64,000 bases of DNA, taken from Botryllus schlosseri. Its lineage: Eukaryota. Location of the stretch: assembly GCA_051294905.1 (NCBI GenBank), contig CM119371.1, forward strand, positions 34,288,001 through 34,352,000, written 5' to 3'. Positions 822-60,389 of this stretch are shown in pieces (the stretch's first letter is position 1; each line of letters begins with the position of its first letter). A program made the translations under genes and the position numbers. The notes under the pieces are model-generated. The model ran no database searches, was not told where the DNA came from, and worked only from the letters and a program-made list of their open reading frames with translations.

Positions 822-1060
822 ATACTGGGTAAGTGAAGCAGCTCAACCATTTAGTACTACCTCGTAGTAATTCGTTTCGCAATGCCTCGCCAGTAGGTCC
901 GTCCACCAAACGGCTTGAGCAAAAGTGACGCTATTCAAGTCTCGACACTGGTTTATATATATGGATACGCATGAGCGCATCTCCCACGTCTCTCATCGCC
1001 GGTGTTGTCGCCGAGTTAATTGACACTGCCAAATAAAATCGTGCTATGAAGTTGTTACCT

Positions 1061-1070
1061 GGGTATTTCC
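1061..1070 (+). promoter_or_regulatory. NF-kB/Rel-like site, E2 copy 1
   Basis: GGGTATTTCC, 38 bp upstream of TATA; preceded by GTTACCT as in the copy 2 promoter. Confidence 0.6.
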
Positions 1071-1098
1071 TGGAGGAATATCGGGACTGGTAGGTAAG

Positions 1099-1106
1099 TA
1101 TATAAG
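1099..1106 (+). promoter_or_regulatory. TATA box, E2 copy 1
   Basis: TATATAAG, 68 bp before the ATG; equivalent element in all five intact copies. Confidence 0.7.
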
Positions 1107-1166
1107 TGAACGATTAAGTCAGTGGTGGATTGTTACGCAAGGTGAAGCAGCATTATTTTAAGAGAA

Positions 1167-1637
1167 ATGGCCATGAAAAGATTGCAGTTTGAGTACAAGA
1201 AATTTTTACAAGAGCCGGGGAAGCTTCCTATTAGAGCAGGACCGATCGACGAATCTGACTTGTATCATTGGTGGGCGACGATAGAAGGACCTCCCGGTAC
1301 TGCGTTTGAAGGAGGGGTATTTCGAATTCTTATAGAATATTCCACCGAATATCCATTCAAACCACCGAAAATGCGATTTGACACCAAGATCTTCCATCCA
1401 AACGTCAGCAGGCGGGGTACAATATGCGTGGATATTTTACAAGCTCAATGGTCGCCAGCACTGACAACGGAAAAAGTGCTTTTATCGATATGTTCTCTGC
1501 TAGCGTCGCCCAATCCTGACGATCCTATGGACGCCGAGAGTGCAAATTTGTACGTGGAAAACCCAAAACTCTACGCTCAGCGGGCTAAGCAATGGACGGA
1601 GCTGTACGCCAGAGGTTCTCCCGCAGCGGTTTATTGA
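1167..1637 (+). CDS. UBE2D-like: Ubiquitin-conjugating enzyme E2, UBE2D/Ubc4-5-like, copy 1 (156 aa, single exon)
   Basis: Complete UBC domain motifs: AGP, YPFKPP, HPN (77-79), catalytic Cys87 (TICVDIL; codon 1425-1427), WSPALT, LLSICSLL, PNPDDP. Confidence 0.96.
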   Translation: MAMKRLQFEYKKFLQEPGKLPIRAGPIDESDLYHWWATIEGPPGTAFEGGVFRILIEYSTEYPFKPPKMRFDTKIFHPNVSRRGTICVDILQAQWSPALTTEKVLLSICSLLASPNPDDPMDAESANLYVENPKLYAQRAKQWTELYARGSPAAVY

Positions 1638-2246
1638 ACGTGATTCCATAAAAAGAGCGGTGTTCAGTATATACTTCATGTATTTCTTACTGAACATTGA
1701 ACTGCATGTTTGGAAAGAATTTCCTGTAATAGCCTGTTACGTCTGAAGGCTATAATCCACTGTGAATCGCAATGATAGTGATTTTTTAAAAATCTATTTT
1801 GTTATAAGGTCAAGCCTTAACAATACATCTGCTATTATGCGACTTATTGGTCATACATGTGTTGATAGTTTCATACAGTTTAAATAATAATGCAAGAGTT
1901 AATTTTACACAAACAAAATTGCTTTTCGTCCGAAACAAAATATTTGATATTTCAATCTGCGTACATGAGTTAAACTCTCGATTGCACGCCATAAACTTCC
2001 AAATGTCGATTACCAGCAAGATTTTTCTCATCTTGTGCTAAATTTTTTACGACAACAATTCGTTCCTCGATACTGATCAAATCTGCAGTTTACAGTGATC
2101 TCGTGTTGGCATTTTCCAATTGTCGAATTCTTATTATTTGGTGGAGCAAAATGTTTTTTTTCGTTCAATAATTATACATGTGATATCCATTTATGTTTTA
2201 CATGCTTGTTGCAATGGATTTTCCGCGTACACATCTGAAATTTTAT

Positions 2247-2252
2247 AATAAA
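2247..2252 (+). terminator. Putative polyadenylation signal, E2 copy 1
   Basis: AATAAA inside a ~60-bp block well conserved with the copy 2 flank (AATAAA at 12172-12177). Confidence 0.5.
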
Positions 2253-2859
2253 ATATACCAAACCAATACTTTACATTTCGCCAAATCCTTCGTAACACAT
2301 GAGCGTGGCATACGAACAATACAAAATATAAGTTTCGATATACGCAACAGTCATTGCGAAGTCTGTTCAAAGCTATCAATACCAGAAGCACTTATTAGTG
2401 ACACGTTTCCAATTGCAGAAGCTTGAAGATAATGCTGTATAGACTAGCAGTATGTCGGTGCTCTTTGGTCGAGAATGACACGGTAATTGATATATCCAAT
2501 GTTCTGTAAGTTGATTTAGAGTACAGATTGCACGAAATGTCAACAATGATAGGGAATTTAGAAGCTATTATAAAATTCCAGATATACCGATAAGTCCCTT
2601 TTATTCTGACTCTGCTGCATCGTATATAAATGAAGTTGATACTAGATGTATTTTGAAATTGCTGGCAGAAACTGAAAATTCTAGTTGAAATATGTCACAT
2701 TGGAAATCGTCAGAAAATGTTCGTGTGTGCAAACATCCTTCATAACCGACGATCCGTGTGTTTCAGTCGAGGTGATGTCCCAATTTTGAAGTAGGACGGG
2801 AACTCCCCGAATCTATAGGTCTACATATCAAAATACTGGCCCGTGGATCGTGTAGATTC

Positions 2860-10965: not shown

Positions 10966-10976
10966 GGGGAGTCCCC
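10966..10976 (+). promoter_or_regulatory. NF-kB-like site, E2 copy 2
   Basis: GGGGAGTCCCC; reverse strand contains GGGACTCCCC, fitting GGGRNYYYCC; 41 bp upstream of TATA. Confidence 0.65.
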
Positions 10977-11006: not shown

Positions 11007-11014
11007 TATAAATA
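11007..11014 (+). promoter_or_regulatory. TATA box, E2 copy 2
   Basis: TATAAATA, 66 bp before the ATG. Confidence 0.72.
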
Positions 11015-11072: not shown

Positions 11073-11543
11073 ATGGCTATGAAAAGGCTTCAGTACGAGT
11101 ACAAGAAATTTTTACAAGAACCCGGGAAGCTTCCTATTAGAGCAGGACCGATCGACGAATCTGACTTGTATCATTGGTGGGCGACGATAGAAGGACCTCC
11201 TGGTACAGCGTTTGAAGGAGGGTTATTTCGCATTCTTATAGAATACTCCACCGAATATCCCTTCAAACCACCTAAAATGCGATTTGACACCAAAATCTTC
11301 CATCCAAACGTCAGCAGAAGAGGTACGATATGCGTGGATATTTTACAAGCGCAATGGTCGCCAGCACTGACAACGGAAAAAGTACTTTTATCAATATGTT
11401 CCCTGCTTGCGTCGCCAAATCCTGACGACCCTATGGACGCCGAGAGTGCAAATCTGTACGTGGAAAACCCAACACTCTACGTTCAAAGGGCTAAGCAATG
11501 GACGGAGATGTACGCCAGAGGTGCTCCGGTAGTACTTTATTGA
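11073..11543 (+). CDS. UBE2D-like: Ubiquitin-conjugating enzyme E2, UBE2D-like, copy 2 (156 aa, single exon)
   Basis: 147/156 residues identical to copy 1 by manual count; HPN and Cys87 intact. Confidence 0.96.
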   Translation: MAMKRLQYEYKKFLQEPGKLPIRAGPIDESDLYHWWATIEGPPGTAFEGGLFRILIEYSTEYPFKPPKMRFDTKIFHPNVSRRGTICVDILQAQWSPALTTEKVLLSICSLLASPNPDDPMDAESANLYVENPTLYVQRAKQWTEMYARGAPVVLY

Positions 11544-26560: not shown

Positions 26561-28453
26561 CCCAATACATATTTTTATAGAATTTTGGATAGAATTGTTG
26601 TGTGATCGTTCTGTATATGTCATGTATGTCCGTAAAATCGCAGCATACTACTACTGTATTATTAAAAATGAATTCCTTTTCATGGGCGAGGCTCGCGTCG
26701 CGAGATGCCAAAAGAACTCAGATTTTGCTAGTTGTCTAAAAGCTGATTTAACGTTATTCAACTGTTATGAATTCTCAAGTTAGATTGGCCTAAATAGCAG
26801 AACACACGGTATCGTGAGTATATTTGCTCTTCCCACATACTCGCGAGACAGAAAATGTGAAATCGAAAAAAAAAAACAGTCGGGGCAGCGTATCATAAGG
26901 TAGCGAGCTCTAATGTGCGTACTCTCCTTGATCGTTTGGACCTTATTTTCCACCTTCTTTTCCAAGATATAAGGCAAACGCCTCAACACAAACACATGGC
27001 TTTTCACCCTTTCGACTACCTGGAGCCTCCTAGACCTTTTTGTCAGCTCTCAAAATCGATTCCTTCCAGCAAGCATTTATTCACTCATGAAAAATACGTT
27101 GTATTTTGGATAGGAATGCAGAACAGCTTTTAAGACCTGGCCGTCCAAGCACTAGTAGACGTTCTTGTACAAAACCCATGAACTTGTTTGGCCGAGAAGG
27201 GTCTTAGTGAAATAGTAGAAATCAAAACGAGCGAAAATAGTAGCCTTTTTAATGAGACACGTGATGGCTTGAGATACATAGTATCCAATTTGTTGCACAA
27301 ATAAGTTGTATTTCATCTTATTTTTGTATAACAATTTTCGGTTGTGCGAATGAAATTTATTTTGCAAAAAAAGGGCGAATGAAGCTCAAAAAGGTTGAAA
27401 AGCACTGTACTAAGCCATGGCATTACGGTGTTTTCTAGTAGGAAAATTCTGCATTTATGTTATTCATTTATATATTTAACGAGATTTAAACTTAGATGTC
27501 AATATTGATATCGATTTTAGTAGACGCATTGTCGGTCATTGGAGAAACAAGATTGAATGAAAACGAACAATGAACCTAATTTTGGAAGAGGTTTTACTAT
27601 ATGTGAGAAGGCATTTCCCTATATCTTTACAGCGTTGTTTTACGTATGCAAAATACTATTTTACCAAGGACTATAGGCTTAGAATTAGCGTGGAAGTACC
27701 TCACTAGTCACTGGAAATGCAATGTAAAATTATGACGTAATAGTTCCGGTTTCGTTGGGAGTTTCCACATTTCGTTTGTAATGGCAATATGACATGCAAA
27801 GGTAGATCCGCTTTTGACTGAAATGATGAACCTAGTTCCGCATATCTCCTATCCAATGCTACCGAGGGAATATCGCTATTTAATCCAGTGGTAGTACACC
27901 GGTGTTCCATGGAACACTTTCGGTTCCGCGAACCAGTTTCTGGAGTTCCGTGGAGGTCGAGACACACGCTCGGCTCAACTCAACATATGATTAGTGATGA
28001 CAATCCCGTCTTGGCCATCATTGGGTGCGGGCAATTAGACCTGGTCCGTAGTTGCATTGTGACTGCTGTGGTAGTACGTCATGTACAGTAGCGTACGCAG
28101 GTTGGGGGTCGGAATTGAAGCCCCGTTCCCCGGAAATGCCAATTCCCTCTCCATTTGTTGAAATCCCGTTTGTAATCATGTAATTCATGTCACGCCGCTA
28201 CATTTCCACCTATCAATACGATGACACATATCCAGTGGAAGTCTCGCATTTCTGAACTTTTGTTTGACAGGAAACGCAGAAGTAACACCAATGTGCGATA
28301 AATAAACATTAATTTGTTTTTGTGTTATATGTAAATTATATTTTAGTGATCTCGTTCTTTTAAACGCTCTGTTGATGCACATTTTGTGCACCAGCGATGT
28401 ATAGTAATGCATTATATGCTGCGTATAGTTTTTATGACCCAGCGAAAATTCGG

Positions 28454-32985: not shown

Positions 32986-32997
32986 GGGGAATTCCCC
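32986..32997. promoter_or_regulatory. Distal palindromic NF-kB site upstream of E2 copy 3
   Basis: GGGGAATTCCCC, a perfect 12-bp palindrome containing consensus GGGAATTCCC, 665 bp before the ATG. Confidence 0.6.
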
Positions 32998-33531: not shown

Positions 33532-33543
33532 GGGGAATCACCC
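33532..33543 (+). promoter_or_regulatory. NF-kB-like site, E2 copy 3
   Basis: GGGGAATCACCC, one mismatch to consensus, 46 bp upstream of TATA. Confidence 0.5.
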
Positions 33544-33577: not shown

Positions 33578-33587
33578 TATATATATA
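33578..33587 (+). promoter_or_regulatory. TATA box, E2 copy 3
   Basis: TATATATATA, 73 bp before the homologous ATG. Confidence 0.68.
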
Positions 33588-33650: not shown

Positions 33651-34154
33651 ATGGCTATGAAAAGGCTTCAGTACGAGTGTAAAAAGTTTTCTAATGAGCC
33701 CAGCACGCTTCCTATTAAAGCAGGACCGATAGACGAATCGGACTTGTATCATTGGTGGGCGACGATAGAGGGGCCTCCCGGAACCCCTTTTGAGGGAGGG
33801 GTATTTCGAATTCTCATCGAATACTCAACAGAATATCCGTTCAAACCTCCGAAAATGCGATTCGACACTAAGATTTTCCATCCTAACGTCAGCAGGCGGG
33901 GCACGATATGCGTGGATATTTTGCAAGCGCAATGGTCACCAGCACTCACAACGGAAAAGGTACTGCTATCGATATGTTCCCTGCTTGCATCTCCCAATCC
34001 TGACGACCCTATGGACGCCGAGAGCGCTAATTTGTACGTGGAAAATCCGAAGCTTTATGCATTACGGGCCAAGCAATGGACCGACATGTATGCAACTGCA
34101 TCGTCATCAATAACGCAACGAGTCGAAAGGGATCAAGGGATCACAGTCTATTAA
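33651..34154 (+). CDS. UBE2D-like: Ubiquitin-conjugating enzyme E2, UBE2D-like, copy 3 (167 aa, extended C-terminal tail)
   Basis: MAMKRLQ start homologous to the other copies; the ORF-track start at 33549 lies upstream of the TATA box; HPN and Cys87 intact. Confidence 0.95.
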   Translation: MAMKRLQYECKKFSNEPSTLPIKAGPIDESDLYHWWATIEGPPGTPFEGGVFRILIEYSTEYPFKPPKMRFDTKIFHPNVSRRGTICVDILQAQWSPALTTEKVLLSICSLLASPNPDDPMDAESANLYVENPKLYALRAKQWTDMYATASSSITQRVERDQGITVY

Positions 34155-36023: not shown

Positions 36024-36522
36024 GTATAAGGCATGTGAAACGGACTGAAAACCATAACTTTGTGACGTCACCTCAGGTCATAGGTTTGTGCTCACGTTCA
36101 TGTTCATGTTCACACTAGCCAGAACATTTCAGGGGTTTCCACCATCCACGACTTCAGGGTAATGGAGGACAACTTATATCGGATTAAAATAGAGTTTGAC
36201 ATGACGAACCATGGATAGTTGACGTATGTTTACATGCAGTGATGTTCACAACGGGTGAAATCTTTCATCAGCTTCTTCTAGTCACCACGACCAATATACC
36301 TTCGTAAGTACATCAATGACGCGAATTCGGGCGCTGATCAACAGGATCTACCTATAGAATACTTGACACGATGTCAGCTTTATTCGCGCGTCAGAGCTTT
36401 GATGGCGATTGAGGACTGAAGCTGCCGCTGTCAATATATCCAGTCGAACGAATGAATCTTTAGGTTAGGCAAACATTATGTAAGAGGTGTGTCGGAGGTG
36501 GGCGCAGTAATGTCATAAATTA

Positions 36523-36929
36523 GGTTCTATACCAATACCGAGAAAACCATTACCGAGAATGGACATTACCGAGAATGTTATTACCGAGAATGGACATTAC
36601 CGAGAATAGTCATTACCGAGAATGGACACCACCGAGAATGGACATTACCGAGAATGGCCAATGTCAAGAATATAGGTTACTGGGACTGACGTTGTCGCGA
36701 AATGTATGCCTGAGCATCGATACCGAATGTGGCAACACCGTGATGCACTCACACGACCTGTGCATATGCATAACATGCCTGCATTGCATATATTGCATTC
36801 TCGGTAATGTCCATTCTCGGTGGTGTCCATTCTCGGTACGGTCCATTCTCTGTGGTGTCCATTCTCGGTGGTGTCCATTCTCGGTAATGGCATTCTCGGT
36901 AATGGTTTTCTCGGTATTGTCCAGACACC
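36523..36929. mobile_element. Short foldback element with 15-bp tandem-repeat arms (Mutator-like)
   Basis: ACCGAGAATGGACATT-type units on the left, their reverse complement on the right; GG..CC termini; 9-bp TSD CATAAATTA/CATGAATTA. Confidence 0.85.
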
Positions 36930-43363: not shown

Positions 43364-43374
43364 GGGAATTCACC
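43364..43374 (+). promoter_or_regulatory. NF-kB-like site, E2 copy 4
   Basis: GGGAATTCACC, one mismatch to GGGAATTCCC, 58 bp upstream of TATA. Confidence 0.55.
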
Positions 43375-43421: not shown

Positions 43422-43428
43422 TATATAT
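43422..43428 (+). promoter_or_regulatory. TATA box, E2 copy 4
   Basis: TATATAT, 80 bp before the ATG. Confidence 0.62.
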
Positions 43429-43501: not shown

Positions 43502-43999
43502 ATGGCTTTGAAGCGGTTACAGTACGAGTGTAAGAAGTTTTCACAGGAGCCGAGGGACTCTGCCATTCGAGCAGGGCCAGTCGACGATATCAACCTGTAT
43601 CGGTGGTGGGCCACCATCGACGGACCCGAAGGAACGCCATTTCAAGGCGGCGTTTTTCGAATCCTGATAGAATATCCAACAGAATATCCGTTCAAGCCGC
43701 CGAAAATGCGATTTGAAACGAAGATTTTTCATCCGAATGTCAGTCGTAAAGGCACAATATGCGTAGATATTTTGCAAAAGCAGTGGTCACCAGCGCTGAC
43801 GACATCGAAGGTCCTCTTGTCCATATGCTCCTTGCTTGCTTCTCCCAATCCGAATGACCCGATGGACCCGGAGAGTGCGAGTCTATATTTAGAAAACCCT
43901 ACAGAGTACGCCAAACGCGCGAGTCAGTGGACCGACATGTATGCCAAAGACGCTGTCCAGTGTTCGGGTTCAGTACAGAAAACAATGTATGTCAAGTGA
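43502..43999 (+). CDS. UBE2D-like: Ubiquitin-conjugating enzyme E2, UBE2D-like, copy 4 (165 aa, most divergent)
   Basis: MALKRL, AGPVDD, FQGGVF, YPFKPP, HPN, TICVDIL, WSPALTTSKVLLSICSLL all intact. Confidence 0.96.
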   Translation: MALKRLQYECKKFSQEPRDSAIRAGPVDDINLYRWWATIDGPEGTPFQGGVFRILIEYPTEYPFKPPKMRFETKIFHPNVSRKGTICVDILQKQWSPALTTSKVLLSICSLLASPNPNDPMDPESASLYLENPTEYAKRASQWTDMYAKDAVQCSGSVQKTMYVK

Positions 44000-45121: not shown

Positions 45122-47430
45122 CGTATCCGGACAATACCGAGAATGCTATTACCGAGAATGCTATTACCGAGAATGCTATTACCGAGAAGGACAATACCGA
45201 GAATGGACATTACCGAGAATGGACAATACCGAGAATGGACATTACCGAGAATGGACAATACCGAGAATGGACATTACCGAGAATGGACAATACCGAGAAT
45301 GGACATCACCGAGAATGGACAATACCGAGAATACTATTACCGAGAATGGCTATTACCGAGAATGGCTATTACCGAGATTACTATTACCGAGAATGTCTAT
45401 TACCGAGAATACTATTACCGAGAATGACCATTACCGAGAATGGACATTACCGAGAATGCTATTACCGAGAATGGCTATTACCGAGAAAGCTATTACCGAG
45501 AATGTATATTACCGAGAATACCATTACCGAGAATGACCATTACCGAGAATGGACATTACCGAGAATGCTATTACCGAGAATGACCATTACCGAGAATGGA
45601 CACTACCGACAATACACTTTGGCGCACTAATGCTCGGCGACCTCACGTCCCAGAGACCACCCGAGGGTGTCGACGCGATAAGCGATCTCCCCCTTTGCTG
45701 CACAGACTAACCGAACCGATCGGGCTCGGAATAGTCGTTTGAAAAATCGCAATTTTCGAATTTTATACCCGTTTTTACGAAACCTTCGAAATTTCCATCA
45801 TTGTTTTACGTATGTTAAAAAATAGGTGATGTAGCCTAGCTAGACAGACAGTGTCGCAATGACCTAGATTTGTTTTGATACACGTATTACGAGAACACGT
45901 TGAAAATGAAGCGATTTAATTTGTGAAATGTCACCAAGTGCACTTACAAGGAGTGTTTATGGTATGACGTTGGGAGATCAAGATAAACGCCGGGCACCAG
46001 CATTAGGCTGAAACTTCGCGCTTATGGACTCAAGGTAAAGTCAAATTTAGCTGAATTATCATGCAACCATCATCAGTGTTGTGCACACATTAACTGTAGA
46101 GTGCTAAACCAGAAAAACTGTATTTTCCTGAAATATAACCATGATATATGTCGTAATTCGGTAGACGTTTAATATTTCAAAACGAATTCTTGAAATACGT
46201 GGCATTTCTTGGATATATTCGCAACATATGGCCCCAATATTGAGAAAGTGATTTTCGAAAATCTAGAATAGTGGTTATGTATATTGTGTATCACAGAAGA
46301 AAATATACTTCGTGGCGAGGTCTCAATAACTTTGCTGGGACGGATTAGGGATTAATATGTAATTTCTATCCCAAACTATTGTTTACAATTTTGCGGGTAC
46401 AAAGAACTTCAAATCCCAACATTTCAAAGTCAACCTGACTGATCTTTTAGTACTCGAACTTTTCTTTGCATAAACCCCAACATAACATCTCTCAGCAGCA
46501 AAATGTTTGTATCAGTGAGCTATTAATTGGCAATTAAAAGGAGTTTGCACAGTACGATATATTTCATATCAAAACCCGTTCTGTTGATGTGAGTACTGAA
46601 GCTTTTGCACTTATGAAGCGAAACTGCCTCATGATTTCCCTGATATTAGGTTATAAATCCTTGCACACGAGCAGTCAAAGCTGGGGATAGGACATGCAGT
46701 GTAATAAGTGTGGAATATAAGCTCATAATCTATCTCAGGGCTCGGCAACTGTTCGTATGCTGCAGCGCGCCAAACATTTTTAATTTTGTCATATTTATCG
46801 TTTACACCCAGGAATCCTACCAACCGCCTATCTGCTGCTGACAATGGCATCGGTTACACCCGTGCTTCTTACAGTAATGGTAGCGAAGGGTAAAAAAGTT
46901 GGTCGCTACTGCATTACACGTACGTAATCTGTACGTAATGTGGTTATGGTGTATGGTTACTTTGGTCGTCTCCAGTCCACTGTGTTCGGTACCATAGTCA
47001 TACAGTGTCAGTCCCATCAAACATGTTACGATGATATGGTAATATACATTCTCGGCAATGTCCATTCTCGGTAATAGCATTCTCGTTAATGTCCATTCTC
47101 GGTATTGTTCATTCTCGGTAATATCCGTTCTCGGAAATGTCCGTTCTCGGTAATGTCTATTCTCGGTAATAGCATTCTCCGTGATGTCCATTCTCGGTAA
47201 TAGCATTCTCGGTAATGTCATTCTCGGTAATGTCCATTCTCGGTATTGTCCATTCTCGGTAATGTCCATTCTCGGTATTGTCCATTCTCGGTAATGTCCA
47301 TTCTCGGTATTGTCCGTTCTCGGTAATGTCCATTCTCGGTAATAGCATTCTCGGTAATGTCCATTCTCGGTAATAGCATTCTCGGTAATGTCCATCTCGG
47401 TAATAGCATTCTCGGTAATAGTAGGGAACC
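45122..47430. mobile_element. Foldback element with long inverted arms of 15-bp tandem repeats (Mutator-like)
   Basis: ACCGAGAAT-containing 15-mers at 45131-45610 and inverted at 47040-47420; perfect 9-bp TSD CAATTTCAT (45113-45121, 47431-47439). Confidence 0.92.
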
Positions 47431-48798
47431 CAATTTCATTTGCTTATTCGGTGTTGGTCGCGAAGGTGGATTTAGCAATTTCAAAGACCTTCAATTTCTA
47501 TTTTCACTGCAAGTAGTTTTGGCAAGTCTTGGAAATCGATACAGTTACTTACAACTCTGCAGCCAACTCGCCTATAAATATTCTGACGCCCAATGCCAAT
47601 TACTAAATGTGTTAGTAAACCAAAATAAAATACCATCGTTCACTTTCATTATTATAGTAATACCAAGTATTAGATTCCACTTGGTATGGATAACGATGCG
47701 TTTTTTTCTTCATTTTTCCTAATTATTGGCGCGTTTCCCTCATCTAACCATCTACTATACCCGCTAGTAGGACTTGCGTGATCTTGCAAGTGGATTTACA
47801 ATCAGCGATTGAATACCAGCGTGCTGTAATTTCTTCGGCGGAAGTCAATTCAGGAGCCATTCATACGTACATGAAGTCCCCTTGTCAGTATTGATGATTC
47901 GTAGACTATTAAATACATGTAGCCGACTGTCACTGTTACAGTCATAAGTATGGTGAATATTTTGTGACCTATAATTAAAACTTTGACATTTTCTTACATC
48001 AATAAACTTTATTTTTACAAATGTGTGCCGTATGAAAAACTCACGTAGTTACACTACGGATTATTTTGCAAAAAGTCCAGATTTATTGTAGTACGGCGAG
48101 TTATGCTTAGCTACACGATCTTGTAGTCAGTCAGTGGGTAGGGTTACCGTATTTTGAGATCCGTCTTTTCAAAAATTCTGAAAGCTCCAGCACCGGAAAA
48201 AACTGAAAATTAAAAAGAAAATCGACCGATAGTACATGTGTTGACTAAAATATGGTCATACCTGTCACCGGCCCTAGTAAAAACACATAAGCGTATATTT
48301 ATAATATATATGTTTTTCAGGTTGCAAGAAAAGACATACTGTAAATGACCTCTTTTGAACCTTATCATATTTTCTCATTCCACATATTCATTGATTGCAT
48401 TACAGTGTTTTGTGATTGTTGATTGGTTGTATCCTTAAAATCAACCTATCATGACGCTTAATGAGCACTACATGAACCTTTCATTTCACACAAGACAATT
48501 ATCCATAATAAGATACATAAATTGTATGGTGGCAATAGCAGTTTGCGATGTGGTGATGAAGATTGAGAAGTCAGGAACATGTGGGGTACCTTTAAAATGA
48601 CACCATAGATCAGGAGAGGTCAACCCGTGACCCGGGGGTTAAATGTGGTCCGCGAGAAGGTTTTGATTGGCCCGTGAGGTAATTCTATAAATTAATTATG
48701 TTATCACAGAAATAAATTACCGAGGAAAGTTATTGTGAGCTTGCAGGACATCCAAACATTTCATGAACCTGACCGCGAAACGTGGAACAATTAATCGA

Positions 48799-49162
48799 AT
48801 CAACGAATCAAACTATCGAAGGGCCCATGGAACGCTCTCTCAATGAAGATTGTTCAAAATGCTTCTAGAATACTCGACGGAATATCCCTTCAAACCGCCT
48901 AAAATGCGATTCGAGATCAAGATCTTTCATTCCTACGTAAGCAGAAGAGGGACGATATGTGTTGATATTTTGTAGAGGCAATATTCACCGGTACTTACTA
49001 CATCGAAGATTCTTTTGACGATATGTTCTCAACTCGCCTCCCAACCCAAATGACCGGATGGACACTGAGAGTGCAGATCTATATTTGCAAAATCCCGAAC
49101 TTCATTTCAAGCGGGCTAAGCAGTGGGCGGAAATGTACGCTGTCAATAATTCAGTCGTGTAG
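48799..49162 (+). pseudogene. UBE2D-like E2 pseudogene (sixth copy)
   Basis: Translates across frameshifts as INES/TIEGP/GTLSQ*RLFKMLLEYSTEYPFKPPKMRFEIKIFHSYVSRRGTICVDIL*RQYSPVLTTSKILLTICSQLAS/PNDRMDTESADLYLQNPELHFKRAKQWAEMYAVNNSVV*; TAG at 48973-48975; 2-nt deletion near 49040. Confidence 0.93.
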
Positions 49163-50493: not shown

Positions 50494-51182
50494 AAGGGTT
50501 ACCATATTTTCTTGGCCGGAATTCCGGTCACTCTTTAGCGCCTCATAGTGGGTTTTAAAATGGGGTATGAACACATATGACGTCACACTGACAATGCTTT
50601 GCCTATCGAATGTATAAGGAGTGGATTTTTAACATAAGTCGTGAATTAAATAGTAATGGACTATTGGGCCATCTCGAATTTGTGCTCTGGTGAATACTAG
50701 GGCCTTCTCATTTGATCTGCAACAGACTTCTCCACGCGCCTGATGAAATTGTCTGGCCCGCCGGCTGTGTGTTTGACAGCTCTGCTATACTGTTGGGTCG
50801 TTGCAGATATGTGTTTGTGTGTTTTTCCCAGGACCGAAGCAACACGTTTAAGCCCAACTCCTGCTTCAAAAACACTGGTCTGAGGTCCCACCGTAGGATG
50901 ATCTATGCAACTTCTGAAGACTTAACTGTATGCATCTGGTTTCTATATGTGCCTCTGGTTGTTAAATTTCCTGAATTCATTCCGTCAACAAGATTGTTTT
51001 TTTCTTTATCGCTAAAGAATTATCCATTCTCAGCCTACGTTGATTTAGGAAAAGAATTTCAGCTCCCTTCAAGCCTTCAAAATTACGGACATTTAGGCAT
51101 ATTTCATCATTTCCTCCCGGACGCAGTTTCAATAGTGAAATTCCGGAAAGGACCGGGAAATTCCGGCCGTAAGGCAACCCTA
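50494..51182. mobile_element. Old Blackjack-like MITE
   Basis: AAGGGTTACC...GGCAACCCTA termini; flanks ACCAAATG/ACCAAATA. Confidence 0.6.
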
Positions 51183-59807: not shown

Positions 59808-59817
59808 GGGATTCCCC
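59808..59817 (+). promoter_or_regulatory. NF-kB site, E2 copy 5
   Basis: GGGATTCCCC, exact fit to GGGRNYYYCC, 47 bp upstream of TATA; second weaker site GGAAAGACCC at 59568-59577. Confidence 0.7.
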
Positions 59818-59854: not shown

Positions 59855-59864
59855 TATATATAAA
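59855..59864 (+). promoter_or_regulatory. TATA box, E2 copy 5
   Basis: TATATATAAA, 64 bp before the homologous ATG. Confidence 0.75.
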
Positions 59865-59918
59865 GCGTAGTTGCTGATAAGCACAATGAAACGGCCGGCA
59901 ACAAGGGTTACACGAGAG

Positions 59919-60389
59919 ATGGCTACGAAAAGGTTACAATACGAGTATAGAAAGTTCTTACAAGATCCCGGGAATCAGCCTATCAAAGCGGGGCCTATTA
60001 ATGAATCCGACTTGTATCATTGGTCAGCAACGATAGAAGGGCCTCCCGGAACTCCATTTGAGGGAGGGGTTTTTCGAATTCTCATCGAATACACAACAGA
60101 ATATCCATTCAAACCTCCTAAAATGCGATTCGACACGAAGATTTTCCATCCAAACGTCAGCAGGAGGGGTACAATATGCGTAGATATTTTGCAAGCGCAA
60201 TGGTCGCCTGCACTAACGACGGAAAAAGTACTTTTATCGATATGTTCTTTGCTTGCGTCTCCTAATCCTGACGATCCTATGGACGCCGAGAGCGCTACGT
60301 TGTACGTAGAAAATCCGACACTTTATGCGATTCGGGCGAAGCAATGGACCGATATGTATGCACGGGGTTCGCAGATTACAGTTTTCTAA
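59919..60389 (+). CDS. UBE2D-like: Ubiquitin-conjugating enzyme E2, UBE2D-like, copy 5 (156 aa, single exon)
   Basis: MATKRLQ start homologous to the other copies; in-frame upstream ATG at 59886 sits at about the expected transcription start; HPN and Cys87 intact. Confidence 0.95.
   Translation: MATKRLQYEYRKFLQDPGNQPIKAGPINESDLYHWSATIEGPPGTPFEGGVFRILIEYTTEYPFKPPKMRFDTKIFHPNVSRRGTICVDILQAQWSPALTTEKVLLSICSLLASPNPDDPMDAESATLYVENPTLYAIRAKQWTDMYARGSQITVF

Follow-up and report, generated by a model that had tools for sequence, protein, structure and literature searches.

In a tandem array of E2 ubiquitin-conjugating enzymes, five intact genes were found to encode a basic residue at the Ser22 position of UBE2D, on a backside surface that is rebuilt at many residues. 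The window, that is the whole stretch of DNA analysed here (64,000 nucleotides), is C1:34288001-34352000 of a 495.5-Mb, 219-contig animal genome. Five intact E2 ORFs are present in the window, all intronless and all on the + strand (starts at 1167, 11073, 33651, 43502, and 59919). According to the reading we favour, with a probability of roughly 0.55, these are immune-inducible and catalytically normal E2s that exchanged the processivity boost for another backside contact and work with IAP/TRAF-type RING partners in immune or cell-death signalling.

Copy 1 (P0001; 1167..1637, + strand) encodes 156 aa and matches Pfam UQ_con with an E value of 6e-47. Its PIRAGP stretch is encoded by window 1227-1244, and the AGA codon of Arg23 (1233..1235, + strand) corresponds to the Ser22 position of UBE2D. 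Arg is also encoded there in copy 2 (11073..11543, + strand; AGA, 11139-11141) and copy 4 (43502..43999, + strand; CGA, 43568-43570). Lys is encoded in copy 3 (33651..34154, + strand; AAA, 33717-33719) and copy 5 (59919..60389, + strand; AAA, 59985-59987). In copy 3, translation probably does not begin at an in-frame ATG (33549) that precedes the TATA box, and an ATG at 59886 could lengthen the ORF of copy 5 by 11 residues. A sixth copy on the + strand (~48720..49159, the start being approximate) is broken, with a damaged 5' part, stops, a frameshift, and loss of HPN. An assembly artefact as the source of the window copies is excluded by dS values of at least 0.32 between them. Short tandem-repeat families, some of them inverted, were seen at 36520-36920, 45130-45615, and 47040-47420.

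The first-pass annotation had claimed a basic residue at the Ser22 position in all copies, and this was confirmed: the five intact copies have R, R, K, R, and K. In the structural alignment and the AF2 model, R/K23 falls on the Ser22 position and the AGP anchor fixes the register. The best three PDB matches to residues 1-68 of copy 1 are UBE2D1 constructs (5FER, 4AP4, and 7ZJ3) that read CRAGP, with R placed on R, and the fourth and fifth matches read CSAGP. The AF2 model has the UBC fold with a mean pLDDT of 81.7, and residue 23 is located within strand E22-28 (b1). A Foldseek search with this model returned UbcH5/UBE2D structures as the top matches (best TM 0.89, rmsd 1.6 Å). Ser22 is present in all five canonical UBE2D-type genes of this genome. 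Among 113 database matches outside the subfamily, position 22 is Ser in 107, Thr in 5, Asn in 1, and basic in none.

The backside footprint of UBE2D is described, in a passage of PMC6349121, as centred on Ser22 and made of strands b1-b3 with Pro17, Pro18, and Gln20 of the a1-b1 loop. A footprint for MUB is given in a section of PMC4996978 and comprises Asp16, Pro17, Pro18, Thr19, Ser22, Ala23, Gln34, Ala35, Thr36, Met38, Val49, and Met147. A ubiquitin variant whose position overlaps the backside site has its Ile44 in contact with Phe51, according to an excerpt of bioRxiv 2024.03.10.583603. In the window copies, the six UBE2D backside residues P18, Q20, S22, Q34, M38, and F51 are all changed (5/5). 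Q34 is replaced by W or S, M38 by E or D, and F51 by R in every copy; residue 20 is P or A, and P18 is lost. A23, T36, and P17 are unchanged. Compared with UBE2D, one residue has been gained in the a1-b1 loop and one in the b1-b2 loop. The idea of a natural S22R equivalent thus stands for the position only, since most of the listed backside residues are altered and the window copies are not UBE2D plus one mutation. Because the backside is changed at many residues, a loss of ubiquitin binding is likelier than from S22R alone, and a single R23S reversion would probably be insufficient to restore it. Judged from the residues, canonical backside ubiquitin binding is very likely lost in the window copies, as had been proposed.

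The copies had also been regarded as E2s that may favour mono-ubiquitylation or priming. Their intact catalytic residues and purifying selection agree with working enzymes; a preference for mono-ubiquitin does not follow. S22R UbcH5B still makes chains and reaches in 20 min the ubiquitylation that the wild type reaches in 5 min, as reported in part of PMC9954413. Sections of PMC4822130 describe backside binding as a throttle or a brake that also docks E3 elements, and state that removal of backside contacts can even increase chain building by UBE2E3. Therefore, mono-ubiquitylation is possible and not implied, and a true preference for it is doubtful.

The functional residues were said to be retained, which is correct for HPN, Cys85, Asp87, Asp117, Phe62, and Ser94-Pro95-Ala96. 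The Arg5 equivalent is also kept in the five window copies. Two residues of helix 1 do not fit the statement. Lys8, which we take to be an E3/E1-side residue, is replaced by Tyr in four window copies and by Phe in one, against Lys in 94 of the 113 database matches, and Asp12 is changed to Lys in all five. Therefore, not every E3/E1-side residue is retained.

The genome search for E2 relatives gave 118 six-frame matches, and 78 near-full-length E2 rows were extracted, two of which are duplicates. Array cluster 1 has R/K at position 22 in 17 of 17 copies (16 on C1 and one on the small contig C163), and a single copy on C9 has K. The E2s of two Maverick families are likewise basic, with K in 11/11 of family A and R in 8/8 examined of family B (13 listed). 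Array cluster 2 has Q/H in 8/8 and group D has Q/E in 3/3. In a third group of mobile E2s, carried by a retroelement, position 22 is Q in 19, R in 1, and K in 1 of the 21 examined (28 listed). Cluster 2, group D, and the retroelement E2s form a nested Q22 clade with Q/H/E in 30 of 32 rows. Two retroelement E2s, L082 and L083, have K or R inside this clade, each one base away from CAA. The basic residue is encoded in the subfamily by AGA, CGA, and AAA. The database members of the subfamily are seven unnamed proteins with R/K at position 22 in six and Q in one. A profile search against 1.84 billion representatives gave, among its best 150 matches, P0007 plus one more divergent member, P0139, whose residue was read from the printed sequence and whose membership was assigned by tree. 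In the same 150 matches a regex anchor called 127 Ser and left 13 without an anchor, and the other basic calls are mis-anchored or mis-started proteins. A search based on P0064 gave 70 Ser, 1 Thr, and 36 unparsed (n=107). None of the database subfamily members, seven and one more from the profile search, is a named protein.

The array E2s are under purifying selection. The NG86 dN/dS is 0.04-0.10 with dS of 0.32-2.9 in the 17 scorable pairs among 28 array pairs, the other 11 being saturated. On a tree of 20 rows, chosen for lying on the R/K branch, position 22 changed four times and each change was between R and K. Among 11 outward backside positions it alone has no class change, and 60 of the 146 columns of this alignment likewise show none. 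Trp34 is kept in 17 of the 20 rows and position 55 is acidic in 19. The confinement of position 22 to R and K along the branch supports another backside partner, which the first-pass annotation had listed as an option. The result can also be read as a simple loss, in which the backside is unused and Arg/Lys22 is merely tolerated on strand b1 with no new partner. UbcH7 carries a natural Arg at the Ser22 position, as noted in part of PMC9954413, and among 15 further E2s of this genome that could be aligned, 3 have Lys there. On the same tree, outward positions 20, 32, 38, and 53 each undergo 5-6 class changes, and the Q22 clade exists; it implies that the basic residue is dispensable across the subfamily and was given up later. 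However, only R and K are exchanged although synonymous sites saturate, and the conservation of Trp34 and of the acidic position 55 would be unusual for an unused surface. A loss without replacement is considered unlikely, and a backside that was rebuilt for another contact is preferred.

The subfamily is a single well-supported clade (98/99). One tree places it outside the UBE2D/E group (80/87), so descent from a Ser22 ancestor can only be presumed. Joining the subfamily to P0064+P0272 (p 0.32) or to the host canonical genes (p 0.056) was rejected in neither case, and the Styela clava protein P0064 (Thr22) could be an intermediate, its grouping with the subfamily being compatible with the tree test. 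In view of this placement, the subfamily is filed as UBE2D-like and not as UBE2D. The quick tree omitted 15 of the 78 genomic rows (duplicates, near-identical copies, one broken copy, and UBE2A), and the AU tests, the UBE2D/E placement tree, the chimera test, and the 20-row tree used hand-picked representatives. A UBE2G2/UBE2D chimera, suggested by the look-alikes EYK, PIDE, and KMRF, was not supported. The diagnostic columns of copy 1 favour D in every segment, with D/G2 counts of 6/3 of 20, 7/6 of 19, 10/2 of 21, and 13/1 of 25; in columns 81-148, 23 of 46 match D and 3 match G2. The half-trees of the chimera test were uninformative (p 0.64 and 0.22). A retrocopy origin based on intron absence was rejected. 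Intron absence is uninformative on origin because introns are also missing from the canonical UBE2D, UBE2A, UBE2E, UBE2N, and UBE2G2 genes of this genome. Many housekeeping E2 genes are single intronless frames (L045, L046, L049, L068, L111-L126), and the canonical UBE2D-type genes are clustered at C6:17.84-17.89 Mb. In a sub-branch of the array (L013 at C1:34121100, L015, L014, L008/L010, L012, and L051) the Asp117 loop is degenerate and the C-terminal tails are extended. Catalytic losses occur in L013 (Cys-to-Ser) and L015 (D87N), both of which retain long ORFs, and the dN/dS of this pair is 0.33, above that of the intact copies.

A TATA-like box stands 64-80 bp above the start codon of every window copy, and a kB-like site lies about 30-57 bp above the TATA box (38-57 in the window copies). 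The sites were scored against GGGRNWYYCC, which we take to be the kB consensus. The site of copy 1 (1061..1070, + strand; TATA-like box at 1099..1105, + strand) has one mismatch, as do those of copy 3 (33533..33542, + strand; TATA at 33578) and copy 4 (43364..43373, + strand; TATA at 43422). Perfect sites are present in copy 2 (10967..10976, + strand; TATA at 11007) and copy 5 (59808..59817, + strand; TATA at 59855), and the 250 bp upstream of the broken sixth copy contain none. A site with at most one mismatch is located within -150..-60 in 14 of the 17 cluster-1 copies and is perfect in 10, a count from related array copies that are not independent samples. The controls are post hoc because the motif was first noticed by eye: control windows further upstream (n=8) have a site in 0-2 of 17 copies, the best of 200 shuffled patterns gives 5/17 perfect, and perfect sites occur in 11 of 748 background tiles. 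No site of any grade was found in seven canonical E2 promoters or in four Maverick E2 promoters. The sites vary in the degenerate middle and keep the runs of G and C, and the promoter pairs are otherwise at the identity of random DNA (median 0.54 vs 0.53). In the three cluster-1 copies that lack a site, the start codon is missing or the gene is disrupted; the broken L008 and the Cys-less L013 still carry the site. In cluster 2 a one-mismatch site is present in just 4 of 8 copies. The Rel-homology genes of the genome are represented by 13 exon matches. A TGTTACCT/TACCC-like stretch, also TACCTG-like, lies directly 5' of the kB site and is partly conserved in the array promoters (window 1052-1060 and equivalents). 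The window holds 12 kB matches against 3.6 expected; several overlap one another, and two E2 promoters account for four of them. Perfect matches away from start codons are at 32986-32997, 51155-51164, 27757-27766, and 2798-2807.

Outside the window, subfamily members are carried by mobile elements. The family A E2s lie inside a 17.9-kb Maverick with 243-bp terminal inverted repeats, and the family B E2s inside a Maverick of ~19.4 kb with repeats of ~420 bp. Both families have AGTAGT ends (AG..CT), and a 6-bp target duplication was seen in 3/3 copies read. An rve integrase-chromodomain was detected in both (E 2e-13 in A and 6e-13 in B), and a Pox_A32 packaging ATPase (E 1e-9) in family A, the sole family tested. 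A Maverick ORF of ~1300 aa gave no relevant Pfam match when a protein-primed PolB was sought, and in the search for a double jelly-roll (DJR) capsid a 443-aa ORF scores 0.98 to clusters in which 14-24% of members have a DJR-like domain, below the recognition bar of the tool. The E2 is adjoined by a Bcl-2 gene in family A, and family B carries a caspase-family gene and a BIR gene. With coordinates read by eye, every E2 of family A (11/11) and of family B (13/13) has a matching integrase within ~10 kb. The E2 of Maverick A is flanked by a tRNA-Ala and a tRNA-Pro gene, and this element has a tRNA-Leu in addition; in Maverick B a tRNA-Ala follows the E2 (L031:1785-1857, 2582-2653; L032:5746-5829; L035:2515-2586). 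The Maverick B copy L066 (C1:36392000-36399000) has an E2 gene split by ~2.2 kb of other sequence. In the third carrier group, 27 of the 28 E2s have a Tpt1-ended pol at a distance of 8.8-15.7 kb downstream. This retroelement exceeds 22 kb and encodes a Gag zinc knuckle, RT, RNase H, Tpt1/KptA, an ISXO2-type transposase, and an LRR protein, with a BIR-RING IAP ~1.7 kb from the E2. Its loci include L091, L039, and L040 at C3:29.428-29.450 Mb and L128-L130 at C7:15.81-15.83 Mb. The ISXO2/Merlin-type transposase is present in two distant members. An integrase domain was not found in the retroelement, and blastn found no terminal repeats. There are 135 Tpt1-domain matches genome-wide.

A single clade of all mobile E2s was rejected (p-AU 8.7e-5), which implies at least two transfers; monophyly of cluster 2 was not rejected (p 0.25). 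The nesting of the tree and the absence of element remnants from the array favour a transfer from host to element. The opposite origin would be an array domesticated from an element-borne E2, with the backside shaped inside a virus-like element. Such an origin would suit a subfamily that forms a long branch without a named cellular relative and has most of its genomic copies in elements. However, 16 element proteins gave no tblastn match in the 291,037 bases of the array and neighbouring host DNA, by which element debris was also rejected as the nature of the array. The element clades fall among or beside host rows, and the positioned kB site is confined to host copies. A domesticated array is judged distinctly unlikely, and capture of a host E2 class by the elements is the favoured direction.

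An escape from backside regulators has also to be considered. The rebuilt face may have freed these E2s from inhibitors of the MUB/UBL3 type or from AO7-like E3 elements, such that they stay charged while canonical UBE2D is damped. Part of PMC4996978 reports that MUB3 fails to inhibit AtUBC8 S22R, and the residues altered here fall within the MUB footprint. AO7 backside binding reduces processivity, as stated in a section of PMC4822130. However, the conservation of Trp34 is not explained by escape itself. A search for host MUB/UBL3 gave no match, and its control was likewise without a match. As the whole explanation, escape is quite improbable; it is partly compatible with the favoured exchange of the processivity boost for another contact.

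Transcription was followed with RNA reads aligned to window 850-2350. From the bulk run X13 came 565 reads, 449 of them only 90-95% alike, which fall on the ORF and on some of the 3' region; at copy 1, reads cover window positions 1156-1617. The single-cell run X11 gave 45 reads at 1972-2226, 37 of them at 95-99%, which pile up directly upstream of a poly(A) hexamer (2247..2252, + strand). Run X17 gave one read and X1 nine contigs of uncertain kind. Copy 1, or its close alleles or paralogues, is transcribed in some samples, and most X13 reads may come from other alleles or paralogues. The divergence of read counts by sample (565 in X13 and 1 in X17) would also suit a gamete- or tissue-specific E2 array that is not immune-induced, comparable to sperm ubiquitin systems, and an extracellular system of this kind is described for an ascidian (PMC10341865). 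However, the position-fixed kB-type site and the carriage of IAP/Bcl-2 together with the E2 by mobile elements speak against it, and this reading is given little probability. Least probable are E2s acting as decoys that sit on RING E3s and hold back the ubiquitylation carried out by canonical UBE2D, for while F62, P95, A96, and R5 are kept and L013 and L015 have lost catalytic residues within long ORFs, the window copies keep all catalytic residues under strong purifying selection, the higher dN/dS of the degenerate pair fits decay, and the earlier proposal of competition for E3s is weakened by the change of K8 to an aromatic residue and by D12K.

In the favoured reading of immune-inducible E2s with an exchanged backside contact, the array (C1:34.12-34.49 Mb) would be a host tandem amplification of a lineage-restricted UBE2D-like subfamily. 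The Rel/NF-kB site above the TATA box would probably turn the array genes on in immune or stress signalling. The E2s would very probably accept ubiquitin from E1 and cooperate with RING E3s, using the unaltered active site and the contacts of loops L1/L2. Arg/Lys22 together with Trp34, Glu38, Arg51, and the longer a1-b1 loop would remove the docking surface for the Ile44 patch of ubiquitin. The ubiquitin-stimulated boost of rate and processivity would then be absent, and the output would be slower or shorter than that of canonical UBE2D. The basic residue may have been kept since the rebuilt face makes a new contact, for which the chances are about even, and the partner would probably be an accessory segment of an E3. 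Mobile elements carrying Bcl-2/IAP would have acquired subfamily members on two or more occasions; this suggests that the E2s operate in cell-death or NF-kB control. A bolder version is tentative, with the odds against it: an NF-kB-inducible E2 class would have traded the backside for a basic/Trp surface that binds an IAP-/TRAF-type E3 element, and Mavericks and a giant retroelement with an IAP-E3/E2 pair would have captured this class independently for the control of host cell death.

E2s are usually conserved housekeeping genes. An apparently immune-inducible tandem E2 family that is shared with mobile elements suggests that E2s, beyond E3s, can join the conflict between host and element. 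If the bolder version is true, it adds a class of E2s devoted to ubiquitin signalling in immunity, as well as an E2 cargo of Polinton-class viruses and retroelements, neither of which was found described. The single residue alone is modest news, UbcH7 having it already. Backside binding has been studied almost solely via the engineered S22R mutant. The present genome offers natural pairs, that is a UBE2D-like enzyme apparently without the site and under selection beside canonical paralogues, by which the in vivo role of the backside can be tested. In the searched literature, which covered few subscription papers, neither a kB-marked UBE2D-like subfamily with a basic residue 22 borne by Mavericks or retroelements nor a paper on a Polinton-borne ubiquitin-conjugating enzyme was found.

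Among known systems, UBE2D1-4/UbcH5/Ubc4-5 (2YHO, 3PTF, and 2FUH) share the bare UBC domain with the window copies, with TM ~0.88 and no acidic loop. Unlike UBE2D, to which they are ~50-55% identical, the window copies have the rebuilt backside, an aromatic residue at K8, and D12K, and they stand in a tandem array with kB-type promoters. The S22R constructs 5FER, 4AP4, and 7ZJ3 have Arg at position 22 as in the R-bearing window copies. UBE2L3 is not known to have the lysine chemistry of the Asp87/Asp117 type, whereas the window copies keep Asp87 and Asp117 and are UBE2D-like elsewhere. With its natural Arg, UbcH7/UBE2L3 shows no backside binding of free ubiquitin, as stated in a passage of PMC9954413. 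Models for a dedicated backside partner are provided by UBE2G2-G2BR, Ubc7-Cue1, UBE2B-Rad18, UBE2C-WHB, and UBC8-MUB, as treated in sections of PMC4822130 and PMC4996978. The accessory genes of adintoviruses/Mavericks include Bcl2 and IAP homologues (Starrett et al., PMC8502044, in part); the main-text passages of that paper on ubiquitin mention no E2, and its supplementary figures S1/S2 could show one. Another comparison is the pI215L protein (UBCv1) of ASFV, a large DNA virus. ASFV encodes IAP and Bcl-2 homologues. Its E2 is termed the only known viral E2 in a passage of PMC7771050. By description, pI215L is set apart by its acidic tail. In contrast to this E2 of a large DNA virus, the E2s described here sit in 18-19 kb Mavericks and in a retroelement and have close host paralogues.
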